Below are positions 1,538 through 8,119 of a stretch of 64,000 nt of DNA, piece after piece. The stretch's first letter is position 1. Each line of letters starts with the position of its first letter. The translations under genes and the position numbers were made by a program. Origin of the DNA: Escherichia phage RB32. The notes beneath the pieces were generated by a model that had not been told where the DNA came from, searched no databases, and saw nothing but the letters and a program-made list of their open reading frames with translations. The DNA lies in the sequence record NC_008515.1. One strand, written 5' to 3'.

Positions 1538-2071
1538 TTATATCATGCTACTTAAGAGATGTAAACTATTTTTAATTTTACAAATTCGTTCAGCTTCTTC
1601 AACAGCGGCAGTGATAATGCTTTTAGCTATAGGAGTACTAATATTAGTAGCTTTTACACTTAACACGATTTCTTTATCTTTACCAGGCCAACCCCACGAT
1701 TTTTCACCATGAGTGCCTTTAATTACAGCAGACACCTCAAGTGAGCATCCATTATCGCATGTTTTTACATTAACAACCCAAGTGTCACTTTTCTCAACCG
1801 GTTTATCCCAGTAAATATTAAGAATACGTGGGACATCAAATTTAGCAGGGCAAATCTTAACCGTAAGACCTTCGCTTTCTAGCCAATTAATAAGAGGGCG
1901 TTCATACATGCGGCGATGTGGGCTTTGAACTCGACAAGCTTTGTACCCATTGCTTGCGGCTTCACTAAGCTCTTCTAATACATGCTTTTGCATTATTGAT
2001 AAGATACCATCAAAAGATTTTTCGGAAGTTTCATTCAGTTCGGTATAAAGAGACATAACAGTTTTCCTCAA
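1538..2071 (-). CDS. Hypothetical protein, 177 aa, several Cys residues
   Basis: ORF track; no recognised motif. Confidence 0.6.
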   Translation of the reverse strand: MRKTVMSLYTELNETSEKSFDGILSIMQKHVLEELSEAASNGYKACRVQSPHRRMYERPLINWLESEGLTVKICPAKFDVPRILNIYWDKPVEKSDTWVVNVKTCDNGCSLEVSAVIKGTHGEKSWGWPGKDKEIVLSVKATNISTPIAKSIITAAVEEAERICKIKNSLHLLSSMI

Positions 2072-2112
2072 ATTATAGGCTCATAATATCTCAATCATGA
2101 GCCTATGTAAAC

Positions 2113-2388
2113 TTATTTCATATTATTGAAATATTCTTCTGCGATTTCGTCGTTATCATGGTAAACTTTAGAAGACAGTTTAACATAACCTTCAGCAGTG
2201 AACATGTTAATCACAACCTTTACAGTATACCACTGACCATCTTCATTACCCATTACTGCGTAAGTTTCAAACATCGGATGATCAGGACCGATAACTTTAA
2301 TATCATTCACTGTACGACCGAAATCTTCTGAAACACATTTCATAAAGAAGTTGAACAGTTCGCCGTAATTATCCATTTCATTCTCCAA
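2113..2388 (-). CDS. Hypothetical small acidic protein, 91 aa
   Basis: ORF track; preceded by an early-promoter-like module (GTTTACA ... TGGTACTAT) and SD-like GGAGAATGAAATG. Confidence 0.6.
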   Translation of the reverse strand: MENEMDNYGELFNFFMKCVSEDFGRTVNDIKVIGPDHPMFETYAVMGNEDGQWYTVKVVINMFTAEGYVKLSSKVYHDNDEIAEEYFNNMK

Positions 2389-2394
2389 ATTGTT

Positions 2395-2455
2395 TTCTGT
2401 ATCAGTAGTTGATAGTTGTATAGTACCATGGAAGAACAGGGATGTAAACAGTTTT
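2395..2455 (-). promoter_or_regulatory. T4 early-type promoter module (-35 GTTTACA, extended -10 TGGTACTAT) upstream of 2113..2388; related to the repeated modules at 6324-7434
   Basis: Reverse complement reads GTTTACATCCCTGTTCTTCCATGGTACTATAC; shares CAGTAGTTGATAG and TGTAAACA..TTTGTGAAA blocks with the other copies. Confidence 0.4.
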
Positions 2456-2587
2456 GTGAAAAAATTTTTAAAAAGTTTTATGGAATTCTAGGGTCAGGAG
2501 GGACAATTAAAAGGTAGGATAATATATTATAAAGGGTATAAACTAAATGATGCCTAGAGAGACAAGGAAAGGCCTAGATACCAAAAA

Positions 2588-2610
2588 GCCCCAACCTTTC
2601 GGCTGGGGCT
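2588..2610 (-). terminator. Intrinsic terminator downstream of the IP-like gene 2618..3091
   Basis: Minus strand reads AGCCCCAGCCGAAAGGTTGGGGCT followed by TTTTT. Confidence 0.6.
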
Positions 2611-2617
2611 AAGAATG

Positions 2618-3091
2618 TTATTTGATTTGTTTAGCAGACCAAATGCGGTCTTTAATAATTTTTTGGATGTCTTCAACATACTCAAGAGAGTGAGCATGTG
2701 GGTTATCTTTGAAACTATAAGCACGAGCTAACTTTTGACCTTCAGTTTTGATTACTAAAAGCTCTTTAAGGATAGCTTCATATCTGGAGATAATTCCTTT
2801 AACGATATTTTTCTCTTGTGTGACTTTAGGATCTGCTTTAGGAGCAGGTTTACCTGAAGCCTTTGCAAAAGCAGCTCCAGTAGCAACTAAACTTTTCCAA
2901 GCCATACTAACTGCATTCCCTGTAAATCCTTCGGCTTTCATATCACGAGCAAATTGGAATCGTGATTCATCGGAAGCATCTTTATAGGAATATTTACCCG
3001 CGGCAATGGCTGCTTTTGCGACAGCTTGAATTTCGGTGCTAGATGCTTCATTTAACACCGCTTCATTTAAAAATTGAGCATATGATTTCAT
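2618..3091 (-). CDS. Internal-protein-like protein with capsid targeting sequence (MKSYAQFLNEA), 157 aa
   Basis: N-terminus matches the T4 IP capsid-targeting/gp21 cleavage pattern (LNE|A); late promoter upstream; flanked by near-identical hairpins. Confidence 0.65.
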   Translation of the reverse strand: MKSYAQFLNEAVLNEASSTEIQAVAKAAIAAGKYSYKDASDESRFQFARDMKAEGFTGNAVSMAWKSLVATGAAFAKASGKPAPKADPKVTQEKNIVKGIISRYEAILKELLVIKTEGQKLARAYSFKDNPHAHSLEYVEDIQKIIKDRIWSAKQIK

Positions 3092-3127
3092 CTTATTTCC
3101 TGTTTTAATTCGGGGTTTTAATATACT

Positions 3128-3135
3128 TATTTATA
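3128..3135 (-). promoter_or_regulatory. T4 late promoter TATAAATA (minus strand) upstream of IP-like gene
   Basis: Plus strand TATTTATA; about 37 nt upstream of the ATG at 3091. Confidence 0.5.
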
Positions 3136-3141
3136 CTAAAA

Positions 3142-3165
3142 AGCCCCAACCTTTCGGTCGGGGCT
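3142..3165 (-). terminator. Intrinsic terminator at the end of the tRNA/stable-RNA transcription unit
   Basis: Minus strand AGCCCCGACCGAAAGGTTGGGGCT + TTTTT; near-identical to hairpin at 2588-2610. Confidence 0.6.
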
Positions 3166-3214
3166 AAGCCTTGCGGCAACCTTGTCGGGGTTCCACCTGC
3201 TAAGGCAAGTGTTT

Positions 3215-3481
3215 GTACGAAACGCCGGGATTCGAACCCGGTTATTAAGCAGTTGACGCTACTCAATATTTTTAAAAGGCCATATCTCGACCATATCCGA
3301 ACGTTCCGTCAAAAACGCTACTCGGCTTACGGCAAAGATATTTCCTCGAATCGATAATTCGGTGCGCCGTTTCTGCTGTGATGTAAGAGGGCATCAACAA
3401 ATCATAAAGATTTATTAACACAATTCCTTACTCAGGGAACATCAGTCCGACGACTTACCGGTAGCGACCCGGTTTCTTGTT
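3215..3481 (-). ncRNA. Stable small RNA region downstream of tRNA-Arg (positional equivalent of T4 species 1/2 RNAs rnaC/rnaD); boundaries approximate
   Basis: No credible ORF; tRNA-like T-arm CCGGGTTCGAATCCCGG near the 3' end (plus 3226-3245); position matches T4 layout. Confidence 0.35.
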
Positions 3482-3558
<77 letters not shown>

Positions 3559-3561
3559 TAA

Positions 3562-4227
3562 TTAAAATTTCATTTTTCGACCTTTAAACCATCCTTCTGG
3601 AATTGGGTCAGTTTTCTTAATACGTTTAGAAACTTTTTCATCTAATGAATGAATCCACATCATACCAAATTGGGAATTCTTTTCGCCCTGTTGGTGTTTA
3701 TTTCTGGCGTGAGATTCTTTCATTTTATTAATAGTTTCAGGAGTATGATGCTTATTTAAAAATCTGCTATTATTTAAAAATTTTTCCCTGTATTCAGGAG
3801 TTGACCACAAGCGTTTAAATACATTTGAACCATGTTTACGATATTTTTCTTGAAGTAAAATATCATTTTTAAAACGTGACTTAAACGATTTAGCTCCTTT
3901 TAAACTAGCGTCTTTCTTCTGGTTTAGCATCCTAGGAATATTTATATGGTCCCATCCACCTTCACCACCAAGTTTTAAATTATACACATCTGGTCTATTT
4001 AAAAACTCTTCTGTGACAATATTTTTCTCGGCTTCAAGCATAGATTCTTTATCATCAAAATACTCTAATATTTCTTTAGAAAAATTTTCTATACCATATT
4101 TATCTTGGGCTCTTTTTAATAATTTACCAGAACCCATATATCCATCATCTAAATTTTCGGTAGAATGCACACCAATATAAATTTTATTATTAATTTTATT
4201 TGTTATTTTATAAGTGTAATGGAACAT
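3562..4227 (-). CDS. segB: GIY-YIG homing endonuclease SegB, 221 aa
   Basis: N-terminal YKITNKINNKIYIGVHS GIY-YIG motif; sits inside the tRNA cluster as in T4; same length as T4 SegB. Confidence 0.85.
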   Translation of the reverse strand: MFHYTYKITNKINNKIYIGVHSTENLDDGYMGSGKLLKRAQDKYGIENFSKEILEYFDDKESMLEAEKNIVTEEFLNRPDVYNLKLGGEGGWDHINIPRMLNQKKDASLKGAKSFKSRFKNDILLQEKYRKHGSNVFKRLWSTPEYREKFLNNSRFLNKHHTPETINKMKESHARNKHQQGEKNSQFGMMWIHSLDEKVSKRIKKTDPIPEGWFKGRKMKF

Positions 4228-4268: not shown

Positions 4269-4340
4269 TGGCCCTGGGTGGAATTGAACCACCATCTGGC
4301 GATTATGAGTCGCTTGCTTGAACCTTCCAGCTACAGGGCC
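4269..4340 (-). tRNA. tRNA with anticodon CAT (T4 tRNA-Ile-like, AUA-reading after modification, or Met); no encoded CCA
   Basis: Acceptor GGCCCTG/CAGGGCC, anticodon loop CTCATAA, T-arm GGTGG TTCAATT CCACC. Confidence 0.75.
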
Positions 4341-6137: not shown

Positions 6138-6323
6138 TTATTCACCTTTAGAAATTTTATCCATAACGATAGCAATTAAACCAATTAAAAATGCTACTAC
6201 AAGTGAAAACACATTTTCTGCTGTAGTTAATAATCCGCATATAAATCCAACAAACATTGAAAAACTAAAAGCAGAAGCAGAAATTGCAATAGCAACATTT
6301 CGAATTAATTCACAACGTTTCAT
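6138..6323 (-). CDS. Small membrane protein, 61 aa, two predicted TM helices
   Basis: Hydrophobic segments AIAISASAFSFSMFVGFICGLL and FSLVVAFLIGLIAIV; first gene after an early-promoter module. Confidence 0.5.
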   Translation of the reverse strand: MKRCELIRNVAIAISASAFSFSMFVGFICGLLTTAENVFSLVVAFLIGLIAIVMDKISKGE

Positions 6324-6391
6324 TTTATTCTCCTCAGTAGTTGATAGGGTAATAGTATCACTACCCCATCTAAAAGTAAACGGTTTATAAA
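6324..6391 (-). promoter_or_regulatory. Repeated early-promoter module (variant A) with SD, upstream of the 4-gene operon
   Basis: Reverse complement: GTTTACTTTTAGATGGGGTAGTGATACTATTACCCTATCAACTACTGAGGAGAATAAAATG; near-identical copy at 7035-7104. Confidence 0.5.
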
Positions 6392-6700
6392 CTATTTTAT
6401 TCCGCGTGATGCAATTGTGTTCTGCCGTTTAGCACCAGTTTGTTTAAAATCATGATTGTCGATTTGATCGGTACGAGCAACTCCGAATGATGATTTGATT
6501 TTAGCTTTAGATCCTTTAGTTATAGAAATAAACATCTCGGAAGCCCCTTTCTTAAAGTCCGAGGCGATTACTTCAACGCCGTTCTTAGCAAGTGACTTCA
6601 GAATTGCCTCAGCATACTCATCGTCAAGACTCGCCTGAGTATTAATAACGAATGTCTTTGGCGCAGCCGCTTCATTGATAAATTCTTTAAATGTTTTCAT
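6392..6700 (-). CDS. Internal-protein-like protein with capsid targeting sequence (MKTFKEFINEA), 102 aa
   Basis: N-terminal CTS with (I)NE|A cleavage motif; own early promoter; at the T4 ipI locus position. Confidence 0.7.
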   Translation of the reverse strand: MKTFKEFINEAAAPKTFVINTQASLDDEYAEAILKSLAKNGVEVIASDFKKGASEMFISITKGSKAKIKSSFGVARTDQIDNHDFKQTGAKRQNTIASRGIK

Positions 6701-6761
6701 TTTATTTTCCTAATTAATTTTTGATGAGATAATAGTATCACTACCCTATTTAAAAGTAAAC
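6701..6761 (-). promoter_or_regulatory. Repeated early-promoter module (variant B)
   Basis: -35 GTTTAC and TGATACTAT -10 on minus strand; shares AATAGTATCACTACC core; near-identical copy at 7363-7434. Confidence 0.5.
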
Positions 6762-7034
6762 TCATTTTAAATAAATTGCGTATTTTTTATAACCCGCTGA
6801 CTCATGACGAAGACCCTTATCATTAGCAAAACGCTCAATGTTGTTAATTTGATTCTGATCAAGTTCAGAGATGTCAAACACGAAAAAGTTACGTTTGTTA
6901 CCAACTGTTATATAGTCAGTTAAATCAATATCATATAGGTAATTGATGTCAGCAATCAAAGTCTTGACAGCTTTGCTAATTTTTACTTTTTCGTTAAAAG
7001 CAGCTTCAGAAATAAATTCTTGATACGTTTTCAT
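6762..7034 (-). CDS. Internal-protein-like protein with capsid targeting sequence (MKTYQEFISEA), 90 aa
   Basis: N-terminus almost identical to the canonical T4 IP targeting sequence; ISE|A cleavage motif. Confidence 0.7.
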   Translation of the reverse strand: MKTYQEFISEAAFNEKVKISKAVKTLIADINYLYDIDLTDYITVGNKRNFFVFDISELDQNQINNIERFANDKGLRHESAGYKKYAIYLK

Positions 7035-7104
7035 TTTATTCTCCTCAGTAGTTGATAGGGTAATAGTATCACAGCTAAAACCCTATGTAAACAACTTTGT
7101 GAAA
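7035..7104 (-). promoter_or_regulatory. Repeated early-promoter module (variant A copy)
   Basis: CTCCTCAGTAGTTGATAGGGTAATAGTATCAC ... TGTAAACAACTTTGTGAAATTA repeat. Confidence 0.5.
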
Positions 7105-7362
7105 TTACTTTAAATCTTCTAATCGTTTCTTCATCTTAGAACCATTTTTAGCGATTTCTCCTGCATCGGAGCATAATGCTAAAAGCGCTTTAACTTTAGT
7201 TTGGTCTCCTTTAAAAGATGAAGGATCGACTGCAGCAGCAAGTTCTTTAATACGAGAGAAAAGACGCTCAGCTTCAGCTAAAGCCATTCCAAGCTTTACT
7301 TCCATACCGTGGGAAGATTCAGTGATAGTAGTTTTTGTAGCAAACTCTTTGAAAGTTTTCAT
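7105..7362 (-). CDS. Internal-protein-like protein with capsid targeting sequence (MKTFKEFATK...ITE|S), 85 aa
   Basis: CTS-like N-terminus, own early promoter, adjacent to 57B where T4 carries ipI. Confidence 0.65.
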   Translation of the reverse strand: MKTFKEFATKTTITESSHGMEVKLGMALAEAERLFSRIKELAAAVDPSSFKGDQTKVKALLALCSDAGEIAKNGSKMKKRLEDLK

Positions 7363-7434
7363 TTTATTTTCCTAATTAATTTTGATGAGGTAATAGTATC
7401 ACTACCTCATCAGCATGTAAACAACTTTGTGAAA
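7363..7434 (-). promoter_or_regulatory. Repeated early-promoter module (variant B copy)
   Basis: TCCTAATTAATTTTGATGAGGTAATAGTATCACTACC ... TGTAAACAACTTTGTGAAATTA repeat. Confidence 0.5.

Positions 7435-8119
<685 letters not shown>

Follow-up and report, generated by a model that had tools for sequence, protein, structure and literature searches.

Phage RB33 carries, downstream of its stable-RNA genes, a gene that likely encodes an unrecognized internal protein (Ip) of the T-even type. The 157-aa product (ORF157, RB33_134) is listed as a "hypothetical protein" in the RB33 annotation. We consider it likely that this protein is made late in infection, packaged with the aid of an N-terminal leader, trimmed by the prohead protease gp21, and injected, and that its gene is a cassette with hairpin joints at a third Ip locus. 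The features of the region, with their positions in the window (the whole 64-kb stretch of DNA that was analyzed), are the following:

2113-2376, minus strand: gene e.8, the conserved right flank of the site
2420-2448, minus strand: sigma-70-like early promoter of e.8
2578-2613, minus strand: downstream copy of a 36-nt repeat, the right cassette joint, holding a terminator-type hairpin
2587-2610, minus strand: downstream stem-loop GCCCCAGCC-GAAA-GGTTGGGGC, with a T-run at 2582-2586
2618-3091, minus strand: ORF157 (RB33_134), 157 aa, pI 9.5
3062-3091, minus strand: leader resembling a capsid targeting sequence (CTS), codons 1-10 of ORF157, with an L-x-E motif at its end
3096-3101, minus strand: Shine-Dalgarno-like AGGAAA, 4 nt ahead of the ORF157 ATG, read from the sequence
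3128-3135, minus strand: T4-type late promoter octamer TATAAATA (predicted), with 36 nt between octamer and ATG
3133-3168, minus strand: upstream copy of the 36-nt repeat, the left cassette joint, holding an intrinsic-terminator-type hairpin
3142-3165, minus strand: upstream stem-loop GCCCCGACC-GAAA-GGTTGGGGC, with a T-run at 3137-3141
3216-3354, minus strand: rnaC, stable RNA gene (RB33 annotation)
3360-3480, minus strand: rnaD, stable RNA gene (RB33 annotation)
3482-3558, minus strand: tRNA-Arg, next after rnaD

A gene module between two copies of a hairpin-containing repeat

The module lies about 50 nt downstream of the 3' end of rnaC, and its position directly behind the stable-RNA genes agrees with the original prediction, as does the presence of a 157-aa ORF with the N-terminus MKSYAQFLNE|A at 2618-3091 of the minus strand. 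The ORF opens with MKSYAQFLNEAVLNEASS, and the downstream repeat with its hairpin starts 8 nt past the stop codon. The two repeat copies are direct, are identical at 33 of 36 positions, and have a spacing of 555 bp. Both hairpins have 10-bp stems with seven GC pairs and a GAAA loop, and are followed by TTTTT on the minus strand. The stems differ at two positions, GCCCCAGCC versus GCCCCGACC, and each pairs with the same 3' arm. Thus, the near-identity that had been claimed for the flanking hairpins and their T-runs was confirmed and extends over a 36-nt repeat.

RNA folding was predicted to yield -20.8 kcal/mol for 2587-2610 (z = -3.9) and -20.3 kcal/mol for 3142-3165 (z = -3.6), and none of 200 shuffled sequences folded as well as either hairpin. 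Both are GC-rich stem-loops followed by a U-run and are, therefore, predicted Rho-independent terminators. The upstream hairpin carries a terminator annotation in fPS-90 and vB_EcoM_112, and it would form the end of the tRNA/rnaD/rnaC transcription unit. Rfam returned only tRNAs, and no family over the hairpins or over rnaC and rnaD.

T4 late promoters are characterized by an octamer at about -10 upstream of a late gene, and they lack a -35 element. The octamer TATAAATA upstream of ORF157 has this arrangement and is a predicted late promoter; its distance of 36 nt from the ATG is very close to the roughly 37 nt given in the original prediction. The last bases of the repeat are also the first three of the octamer (…TTTTTAGTAT|AAATA), and between the hairpin and the ORF157 ATG no site resembling a sigma-70 promoter was called. 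The window contains 24 copies of TATAAATA versus about 16 expected according to a rough estimate from base composition. Because the octamer alone is not rare in this AT-rich window, its weight comes from its position and from its conservation in relatives. The order of hairpin, T-run, and TATAAATA is kept in fPS-90, JEP6, SH-2, phiD1, AV121, LF82-7 (Mosigvirus), and phiKp_22 (Jiaodavirus). The octamer at the promoter site is TATAAATA in the Tequatrovirus loci, LF82-7, and phiKp_22, and AATAAATA in O157tp3.

ORF157 shares its leader with known internal proteins

The first ten residues of ORF157 follow a frame, M-K-[ST]-[YF]-x-[EQ]-F-[IL]-x-E, that is common to T4 IPII and IPIII, PST IpIII-VI, and RB33 Ip4 and Ip7. 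Six of the ten residues are identical to the validated leader of T4 IPII/IPIII (of the type MKTYQEFIAE), and three of the four exchanges, T3S, E6Q, and I8L, are conservative, the fourth being Q5A. Relative to the internal proteins used for comparison, the leaders of the ORF157 family differ in having Leu8 instead of Ile or Ala, and the leader of RB33 ORF157 additionally has Ser3, Ala5, and Gln6. Two motifs of the gp21 type, L/I-x-E with a small residue behind it, are predicted cleavage sites, i.e., L8-N-E10|A11 and the duplicate L13-N-E15|A16, which forms a second site VLNE|A after residue 15. Read from Ala11, the sequence begins with AVLNEASSTEIQAVAK, and from Ala16 with ASSTEIQAVAK.

The leader is followed by a conserved N-domain of three helices (about residues 18-71), a linker rich in Pro, Lys, and Ala (about residues 72-87), and a C-terminal helical hairpin (residues 88-155). 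An AlphaFold2 model of the protein was all-helical with a pLDDT of 75.6. The coding frame is constrained. Differences at codon positions 1, 2, and 3 numbered 3, 3, and 21 in comparison with the fPS-90 homologue and 23, 20, and 68 in comparison with the Mosigvirus homologue, and this predominance of third positions indicates purifying selection on the minus-strand frame.

The body of ORF157 did not reveal a connection to other internal proteins. Alignments of the ORF157 family with T4 IPII, T4 IPIII, and RB33 Ip4 by hhalign covered residues 1-10 only. Identity with Ip4 had been suspected from the PST "ipIV", which has 157 aa and the ipII position, and was rejected because BLASTP found no relation and because the match to the Ip4 of RB33 itself is confined to the leader. 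Judged from these comparisons, the ORF157 body is unrelated to those of other Ips and the common part is the 10-residue leader, as among the known Ips. ORF157 is not named an internal protein in the database records or literature examined.

Searches for other relatives gave few matches. Nothing above threshold was found in Pfam, in NCBIfam, or in a sequence search of the PDB with the family profile. Foldseek with the ORF157 model had a best match of only E = 1.7 in the PDB, and in BFVD it found only family members, Serratia phage PS2 among them. An exhaustive phmmer search with ORF157 against 1.84 billion representatives produced 12 matches. Four of these were proteins of 753-2315 aa with four to five matching stretches each; they are Ig/cadherin-type repeat proteins with 28-33% identity over about 54 residues of the repeated unit, and a domain common to ORF157 and these giant proteins was rejected as spurious. 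As neither fold nor sequence gives a clue to the function of ORF157, an anti-defense role is proposed purely by analogy.

Possible packaging and roles in the virion

ORF157 resembles the T-even internal proteins in being small, basic, and dispensable, in having a leader with a gp21-type end, and in varying in presence among close relatives. It might instead be a structural or DNA-associated component of the core that is packaged via the leader and serves in charge neutralization or as a scaffolding core filler, without a part in anti-defense. To this reading we assign a minor, though appreciable, probability. The pI of 9.5, which resembles that of IPII, the Lys/Pro/Ala-rich linker, and the long helices are in its favor, as is the result that no similarity to known inhibitors was found in Pfam, NCBIfam, the PDB, or with Foldseek. 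In addition, the N-domain has 55-58% identity across genera over the first ~90 residues, and is thus less diversified than an arms-race gene might be. Against it, ORF157 is dispensable, being absent from T4, T2, PST, and Manna, and varies combinatorially between close relatives, and specific anti-restriction activity has been found for all three T4 Ips put to the test (PMC12373910).

A homologue of ORF157 is on a list of virion-associated proteins. The 157-aa homologue g140 of phage fD1/phiD1 was flagged as particle-associated (PPAP) by LC-MS/MS of purified virions, with thresholds of two or more peptides and a mean spectral count no lower than 2 (PMC8309999 Table S3). This list is permissive: of about 277 gene products, 113 are on it, DenV, lysozyme, and NudE among them, and it gives no abundances; therefore, the g140 entry raises the odds of packaging only modestly. 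The fPS-2/fPS-90 paper includes no proteomics.

The many non-structural proteins on the fD1 list, together with the four positions at which the ORF157 leader departs from the T4 CTS, would also be compatible with an ordinary late or early-and-late cytoplasmic protein, the leader-like end of which is a by-product of shuffling of 5' gene ends. We regard this as improbable for several reasons. Homologues from three genera retain the leader at only 27-42% identity, and the gp21-type motif is kept in diverged homologues as LTE|Q, LAE|A, LAE|G, or LAE|T. The survival of the leader frame including its L-x-E end at such low identity argues for selection on the leader. Moreover, among the 563 ORFs in the window that start with ATG and have 40 aa or more, only four open with the pattern MK.[YF]..F, and these are the three annotated Ip genes and ORF157. 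Lastly, the predicted promoter is of the late type, which suits head proteins, and the predicted terminator would shield ORF157 from upstream early transcription.

Taken as an internal protein, ORF157 would be expressed at the late stage from a dedicated TATAAATA promoter, and the 10-residue N-terminal leader would take it into the assembling prohead. Trimming by gp21 would occur after L-N-E at residue 10 and/or 15, and the remaining basic protein of roughly 15.5-16 kDa would stay in the head and enter the host with the DNA. The designation as a fourth injected protein in the original prediction is appropriate as a count within the window; for the phage as a whole ORF157 would be the fifth, since an Ip4 at the ipII/III locus is annotated in RB33 as well.

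A candidate third Ip locus

In 2025, the internal proteins of T-even phages ceased to be curiosities when they were shown to form an arsenal of injected anti-restriction proteins with high specificity (PMC12373910). Ip1, Ip2, and Ip3 act as inhibitors of three different GmrSD Type IV restriction enzymes, one each, and have only the leader in common (PMC12373910). Besides Ip1/IPI*, Ip2/IPII, and Ip3/IPIII, there are the named variants Ip4-Ip7 and beyond (Silas et al. 2025, PMC12373910). The literature counts "two Ip loci" (PMC12373910). Both recognized loci, 57B-tRNA.4 and vs.8/denV-e, were defined from T4, whereas ORF157 lies between rnaC and e.8, a site that is empty in T4 and T2. No Ip gene adjoining rnaC was found in the literature searched, a set without Repoila et al. 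1994 or the supplementary table on PST. The rnaC-e.8 site is probably a third polymorphic Ip locus beside ipI and ipII/ipIII, and is probably common to several Tevenvirinae genera.

By analogy with Ip1, Ip2, and Ip3, the most likely role of an injected ORF157 would be the neutralization of a host defense. A more far-reaching and rather tentative proposal, which we consider to have less than an even chance of being correct, is that the cargo of the rnaC-e.8 hotspot (PHROG 2280 and relatives) generally consists of specific inhibitors of host defenses, either of GmrSD/Type IV variants or of new ones. If so, the hotspot would hold a diversifying cargo built from leader, variable N-domain, Pro/Lys linker, and C-terminal helical hairpin, and the joint would have been retained because modules can be swapped, stacked, or dropped without disturbing the neighboring transcription units. 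The commonest Ip family of T4-like phages would then have been missed because T4 and T2 are empty here.

In practical terms, annotation is improved and a small set of proteins is offered for testing. ORF157 and a second ORF at the site, ORF187, are labeled "hypothetical protein" in the records examined and are ready candidates for new injected anti-defense factors in phages under development for therapy, and the site, with its presence, absence, and stacking of modules, is a simple natural system in which to study the exchange of such factors. Conceptually, the advance is modest, as neither the protein class nor modular shuffling via repeats is new.

States of the site among relatives

T4, T2, PST, and Manna do not contain ORF157, have one hairpin at the site, and lack exactly 555 bp; the empty junction is identical in all four phages. 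In an alignment of T4 and RB33, the 555-bp difference begins and ends in the hairpin and is equal to the spacing of the repeats, and e.8 and rnaC are 284 bp apart in T4 versus 839 bp in RB33. Hence, the module is a self-contained cassette, as had been proposed, with boundaries that match the hairpins to the base, and the empty site with a single hairpin that the original prediction had suggested looking for was found.

An even sample of 768 records contained sites with about 0, +555, +685, and +1235 bp. The cargo of the site among relatives is either ORF157, a second CTS-bearing ORF of 187 aa (ORF187), both, or neither. Homologues of ORF157 are present in 510 phage records and those of ORF187 in 165, and the site is occupied in roughly 85-90% of the sampled T4-like genomes. 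At the junctions, the left flanks are the rnaC side and the ORF157 3' end, and they are joined via the same hairpin to three right flanks, i.e., the ORF157 promoter, the ORF187 upstream region, and the e.8 side; five of the six combinations of left and right flanks were observed.

ORF157 and ORF187 could be aligned only in the leader when BLASTP and a narrow profile were used. With a broader profile, which included the 208-aa cargo of Mosigvirus, their C-terminal domains were linked with an hhalign probability of 74% (E = 2.8e-5). The two are probably very distant relatives, in line with their common assignment to phrog_2280.

Behind the tRNA/stable-RNA cluster, Mosigvirus and a Klebsiella Jiaodavirus likewise have the layout of hairpin, late promoter, and CTS-bearing ORF, and in three genera every cargo found at the site has a CTS-like leader, after a hairpin and a late-type octamer. 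Because a related CTS-bearing ORF is present at the same site in Mosigvirus and Jiaodavirus, occupancy looks ancestral and empty sites look like deletions. The site is probably old and the empty state of T4 is probably a deletion, so that the term "inserted" in the original prediction seems to have the direction wrong.

The module, consisting of predicted late promoter, SD motif, ORF, and terminator hairpin, is placed straight after the predicted terminator of the tRNA/rnaD/rnaC operon, and the operon hairpin and the module hairpin are copies of one sequence. We propose that homologous recombination across the repeat of roughly 30-36 nt deletes, adds, and re-joins modules, which would yield the four states empty, ORF157, ORF187, and both. 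Co-infecting phages could also have spread presence and absence simply by homologous exchange in the conserved flanks, with no new events at the hairpin.

Relation to known shuffling systems

Repoila et al. reportedly described, in 1994, shuffling of T-even internal protein genes at the ipI locus via repeated promoter/leader sequences between the ip genes. The rnaC-e.8 site is similar in having tandem, interchangeable ip-type ORFs, common leader codons, and short conserved intergenic joints. However, the ipI joints in the window are hairpin-less early-promoter modules of roughly 60 nt (GTTTACAT…GTGATACTATTA), whereas the joint at the ORF157 site is a terminator-type hairpin. Repeated early-promoter modules of the sigma-70 type precede the ip genes in the window and in T4, in contrast to ORF157, where a predicted late promoter comes immediately after a predicted terminator.

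A second system for comparison is the PeSL (promoter-early stem-loop), which forms modular shuffling cassettes in T4-type phages (Arbiol et al. 2010, PMC2839356; Comeau et al. 2014, PMC4122927). In both cases, an ORF that is non-essential lies between repeated composites of terminator stem-loop and promoter, the place of this ORF is taken by a single motif copy in a close relative, the indel is accounted for by recombination between the copies, and the indel boundaries between close relatives lie inside the motif. The ORF157 module differs in that its promoter is of the TATAAATA late type and not of the sigma-70 early type, that its hairpin is found at a single locus instead of throughout hyperplastic regions, and that every cargo at the rnaC-e.8 site is an ORF with a CTS.

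In RB49 and phi1, ORFs between PeSLs are excised in the form of circles (PMC2839356). The direct repeats of a composite terminator/promoter around ORF157 are shared with these circle-excising ORFs and might suggest an autonomous mobile cassette of the mini-circle type, which moves among genomic sites wherever the hairpin occurs. The distribution of the hairpin makes this very unlikely. The window holds two copies, and a 41-nt query of hairpin plus promoter matched 715 phage records, which contain 1168 hairpin copies, with one or two in a typical genome and three in rare cases. Copies were located at the rnaC-e.8 site in every locus inspected, and none was seen flanking other genes. The late type of the promoter, in contrast to the sigma-70 early type that defines PeSLs, is a further argument against mobility of this kind.

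That the two hairpins are unrelated ordinary terminators with coincidental likeness and position, a reading that would draw on the abundance of GC-rich GNRA-loop terminators in T4-type genomes, can practically be dismissed, because the 33/36 identity runs past the stem into both flanks, the 27-nt core pattern of the repeat has two sites in the 64-kb window versus none expected from shuffles and is absent elsewhere in it, the indel boundaries coincide exactly in the comparative alignment, contrary to what terminators without a cassette boundary would give, and both copies have lineage-specific variants in common. These variants are TTCC in Mosigvirus and [GA][AG]CC in Tequatrovirus, and their sharing by both copies points to common descent or gene conversion.

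A conserved gene with a putative capsid targeting leader

ORF157 is a minus-strand gene flanked by e.8 on one side and by rnaC and rnaD, two stable RNA genes, on the other. Upstream, the order in RB33 is a seven-tRNA cluster, segB, tRNA-Arg and then rnaC/rnaD. Annotations were taken from the phage RB33 record (KM607001.1), which is 100% identical to the window (window coordinate = record coordinate - 64119).

Features of the ORF157 site
2618-3091, minus: ORF157 (RB33_134), 157 aa, start MKSYAQFLNEAVLNEASS, annotated 'hypothetical protein'
3128-3135, minus: late promoter octamer TATAAATA, separated from the ORF157 ATG by 36 nt
3165-3142, minus: upstream terminator-like hairpin, 10 pairs, GAAA loop, then TTTTT
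2610-2587, minus: downstream terminator-like hairpin, 10 pairs, GAAA loop, then TTTTT

The original prediction of a 157-aa ORF with a leader resembling a capsid targeting sequence (CTS), a late promoter about 37 nt upstream, and two near-identical hairpins with T-runs is borne out by these features, the hairpins showing two stem differences. A Shine-Dalgarno motif, AGGAAA, is located 4 nt ahead of the ATG. The bare octamer is not rare (24 copies in the window versus a rough expectation of about 16 from base composition), and therefore the promoter was weighted solely by its position and conservation. By codon position, ORF157 differs from its fPS-90 counterpart at 3/3/21 nucleotides and from that of a Mosigvirus at 23/20/68; in the latter comparison, 49 of the codon changes are synonymous and 32 non-synonymous. 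Because relatives differ mostly at third codon positions, the minus-strand frame is a real gene under purifying selection.

Homologues were found in 510 phage records and were called 'hypothetical protein' wherever annotated among the matches listed. ORF157 and ORF187, a second CTS-bearing ORF in some relatives (N-terminus MKTYAEFLTE|AAK), both belong to PHROG 2280 ('unknown function'). In the 14 clusters from a collection of 5.8 billion sequences, as in the 12 representatives from an exhaustive search, all named members were T4-type phage proteins and the rest were metagenome sequences. The predicted structure is all-helical: an N-domain of three confidently modelled helices is followed by a Pro/Lys/Ala linker of low confidence and then by a long helical hairpin; structure and sequence searches found no neighbour of known function. 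The pI of 9.5 is about that of IPII.

The leader links the protein to the T-even internal proteins (Ips). In the alignment to IPII and IPIII that had been proposed as a check, the family profile matched T4 IPII, T4 IPIII and RB33 Ip4 at residues 1-10 only. The window has 563 ATG-ORFs of 40 aa or more, and only four of them start with MK.[YF]..F, namely ORF157 and three annotated Ip genes of the ipI locus:

7105-7362, minus: annotated Ip gene
6762-7034, minus: annotated Ip gene
6392-6700, minus: annotated Ip gene

The leader frame M-K-[ST]-[YF]-x-[EQ]-F-[IL]-x-E plus a small residue is common to ORF157, the validated T4 leaders and the annotated Ip4-Ip7. As established in T4 by Black, Showe, Mullaney and co-workers, the prohead protease gp21 is specific for L/I-x-E, and the IPIII leader is sufficient for packaging. 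RB33-type proteins carry a tandem duplication of five residues (FLNEA-VLNEA; codons 6-15, window 3047-3076), which gives two putative L-N-E|A cleavage sites, after residues 10 and 15. Only one putative site is present in the homologues from Mosigvirus and Jiaodavirus.

Phage fD1 (phiD1, HE956711) contains the cassette, and its ORF157 homologue g140 is on the list of virion proteins, marked as lacking a T4 counterpart (PMC8309999 Table S3). This list is permissive: DenV, lysozyme and NudE are among its 113 proteins. It was counted as modest support for packaging, not proof; the small neighbours g138 and g139 (e.8) are absent from it (PMC8309999 Table S3). The ORF157 product is probably a packaged and processed internal protein. 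The earlier reading as a 'fourth injected protein' is supported as to the internal-protein character but not as to the count, as it would be the fifth Ip in RB33; packaging is inferred, with weak proteomic support. By analogy, the product may counter a host defence.

Hairpins as probable joints of a cassette

Predicted folding energies were -20.3 kcal/mol (z = -3.6) for 3165-3142 and -20.8 kcal/mol (z = -3.9) for 2610-2587, and 0 of 200 shuffles folded as well as either hairpin. The stems differ as AG versus GA, and pairing to an unchanged UU in the 3' arm is kept in both. A 36-nt direct repeat is built around the hairpins (2578-2613 and 3133-3168; 33 of 36 positions identical), with a start-to-start spacing of 555. 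No further copy of the 27-nt repeat core was found in the 64-kb window, where shuffles predicted zero.

The spacing between e.8 and rnaC is 284 bp in T4 versus 839 bp in RB33, a difference of 555 bp that matches the spacing of the repeat, in line with the self-contained cassette proposed behind the stable RNA genes. In the pairwise alignment, T4 passes from rnaC through a single hairpin directly to the e.8 flank, whereas RB33 has hairpin, promoter, ORF and hairpin. The single-hairpin junction, anticipated as an empty site, also occurs in T2, PST and Manna. Occupancy was surveyed in 60 records sampled evenly from the 768 that matched, the state being judged by insertion size relative to T4.

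Cassette states and insertion size versus T4
Empty: about 0 bp; T4, Manna, ACG-C40
ORF157 only: about +555 bp; PP01, RB18, phiD1; most frequent state
ORF187 only: about +685 bp; P922, Pu-Krd-SF5
Both ORFs: about +1235 bp; fPS-90, pSs-1, HP3, UFV13

The joints were read in 14 loci. To the left of the hairpin stands either the rnaC side or the 3' end of ORF157, and to the right the ORF157 promoter, the region upstream of ORF187 or the e.8 side; of the six possible pairings through this same hairpin, five were observed. This pattern is expected if the crossover point is the hairpin with its T-run, and the hairpins are very probably the joints of the cassette.

The upstream copy (window 3142-3165) is GCCCCGACCGAAAGGTTGGGGC in all Tequatrovirus loci read except Manna, which has GCCCCAACC. 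The downstream copies vary in stem or loop: RB33 (2587-2610) has the AG/GA swap, phiD1 an AAAA loop, JEP6 a C-to-T stem mismatch, and SH-2 has lost one C (variants beyond RB33 from the compared loci L003, L005 and L011). The near-invariant upstream and variable downstream copies suggest that the hairpin ending the tRNA/rnaC operon is under stronger constraint.

About 400 bp separate the cassette from segB (window 3562-4227), a GIY-YIG homing endonuclease gene. In mixed infections, SegB could drive the co-conversion of flanking markers and so skew the inheritance of cassette states. Among segB-carrying phages of the sample, all cassette states are represented.

Age of the site

O157 typing phage 3 (Mosigvirus) has a 154-aa homologue at the same place (75% identity, MKSYAEFLTE|Q), with GCCCCTTCCGAAAGGTCGGGGC-TTTTT and AATAAATA ahead and a related hairpin behind. 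LF82-7 (Mosigvirus) instead carries a 208-aa cargo (MYTFNEFLAE|T) immediately after hairpin, T-run and TATAAATA; this cargo is distantly related to the ORF157 family over its full length (E = 2e-14 to P0016). In phiKp_22 (Klebsiella Jiaodavirus), a 177-aa homologue (MKFKEFLAE|A) sits behind GCCCCGTC-TTCG-GACGGGGC-TTTTT-AG-TATAAATA. The layout of operon terminator, late promoter and CTS-ORF therefore predates these genera. Contrary to the proposal of an inserted cassette, the site was probably occupied in the ancestor and the T4-type empty state probably arose by deletion, although the reverse reaction may have occurred instead.

Lineage-specific variants common to both hairpin copies (TTCC in Mosigvirus, [GA][AG]CC in Tequatrovirus) suggest that the copies are still exchanging sequence.

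Comparison with known systems

ORF157 agrees with the T-even internal proteins at the level of sequence, but lies outside both recognised loci; recent literature counts 'two Ip loci' (PMC12373910). Among the papers and records that could be read, none was found to name ORF157 or its site as an Ip gene or locus. ORF157 represents a widespread, unannotated family of CTS-bearing proteins at a probable third, cassette-organised Ip locus.

Repeated sigma-70-type early-promoter modules, with no hairpin, lie ahead of the ipI-locus genes of the window and of T4 ipII/ipIII, whereas ORF157 has a predicted late promoter that a terminator would shield. In the ipI locus (window 6300-7480, minus), a near-identical module of about 60 nt (GTTTAC[AT]T…GTGATACTATTA…ATCAA) precedes each of the three Ip genes; the same type precedes tRNA.4 and e.8 (e.8: window 2420-2448). 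The hairpin/late-promoter joint of ORF157 is of a different kind.

As in the promoter-early stem-loop (PeSL) shuffling model, ORF157 is bracketed by a repeated terminator/promoter composite that is single-copy in a relative (PMC2839356, PMC4122927). Of the defining PeSL features tested, neither an early promoter nor dispersed copies were found. The hairpin census gave 1168 copies over 715 phage records; a genome usually has one or two, seldom three, and in every locus read they were confined to the rnaC-e.8 site; the element is therefore neither dispersed nor mobile in the PeSL sense.

Other features nearby

In JEP6 and SH-2, a 351-nt ORF (116 aa, MKGNVYLVVHDL…, phrog_3355, unknown function) separates tRNA-Arg from rnaD. 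An ORF is annotated at this position in P922, AV121 and LF82-7, the CDS annotated there in O157 typing phage 3 is shortened by a stop codon, and RB33 and T4 lack the ORF. It is a second indel less than 400 bp from the cassette.

The tRNA-Arg/rnaD ORF in the compared loci
L003: 1931-2281
L005: 2612-2962
L006: 1792-2092 (cut)
L013: 2268-2568 (cut)
L014: 1854-2198
L008: 1072-1410

The neighbouring rnaC/rnaD (window 3216-3480) are annotated as stable RNAs in both RB33 and T4, and no matching Rfam family was found for them, even at permissive thresholds. RB33_132 (519 nt, window 1538-2056) occupies the place of T4 e.7 (336 nt), with another length and no e.7 note in the RB33 annotation, and a hairpin with 13-bp arms (ATAGGCTCATAAT…ATCATGAGCCTAT; window 2075-2106) separates it from e.8; this region may be another replaceable module. 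The tRNA at window 4269-4340 is Met(CAU) according to ARAGORN and the RB33 record, and the syntenic T4 gene is annotated tRNA-Ile.
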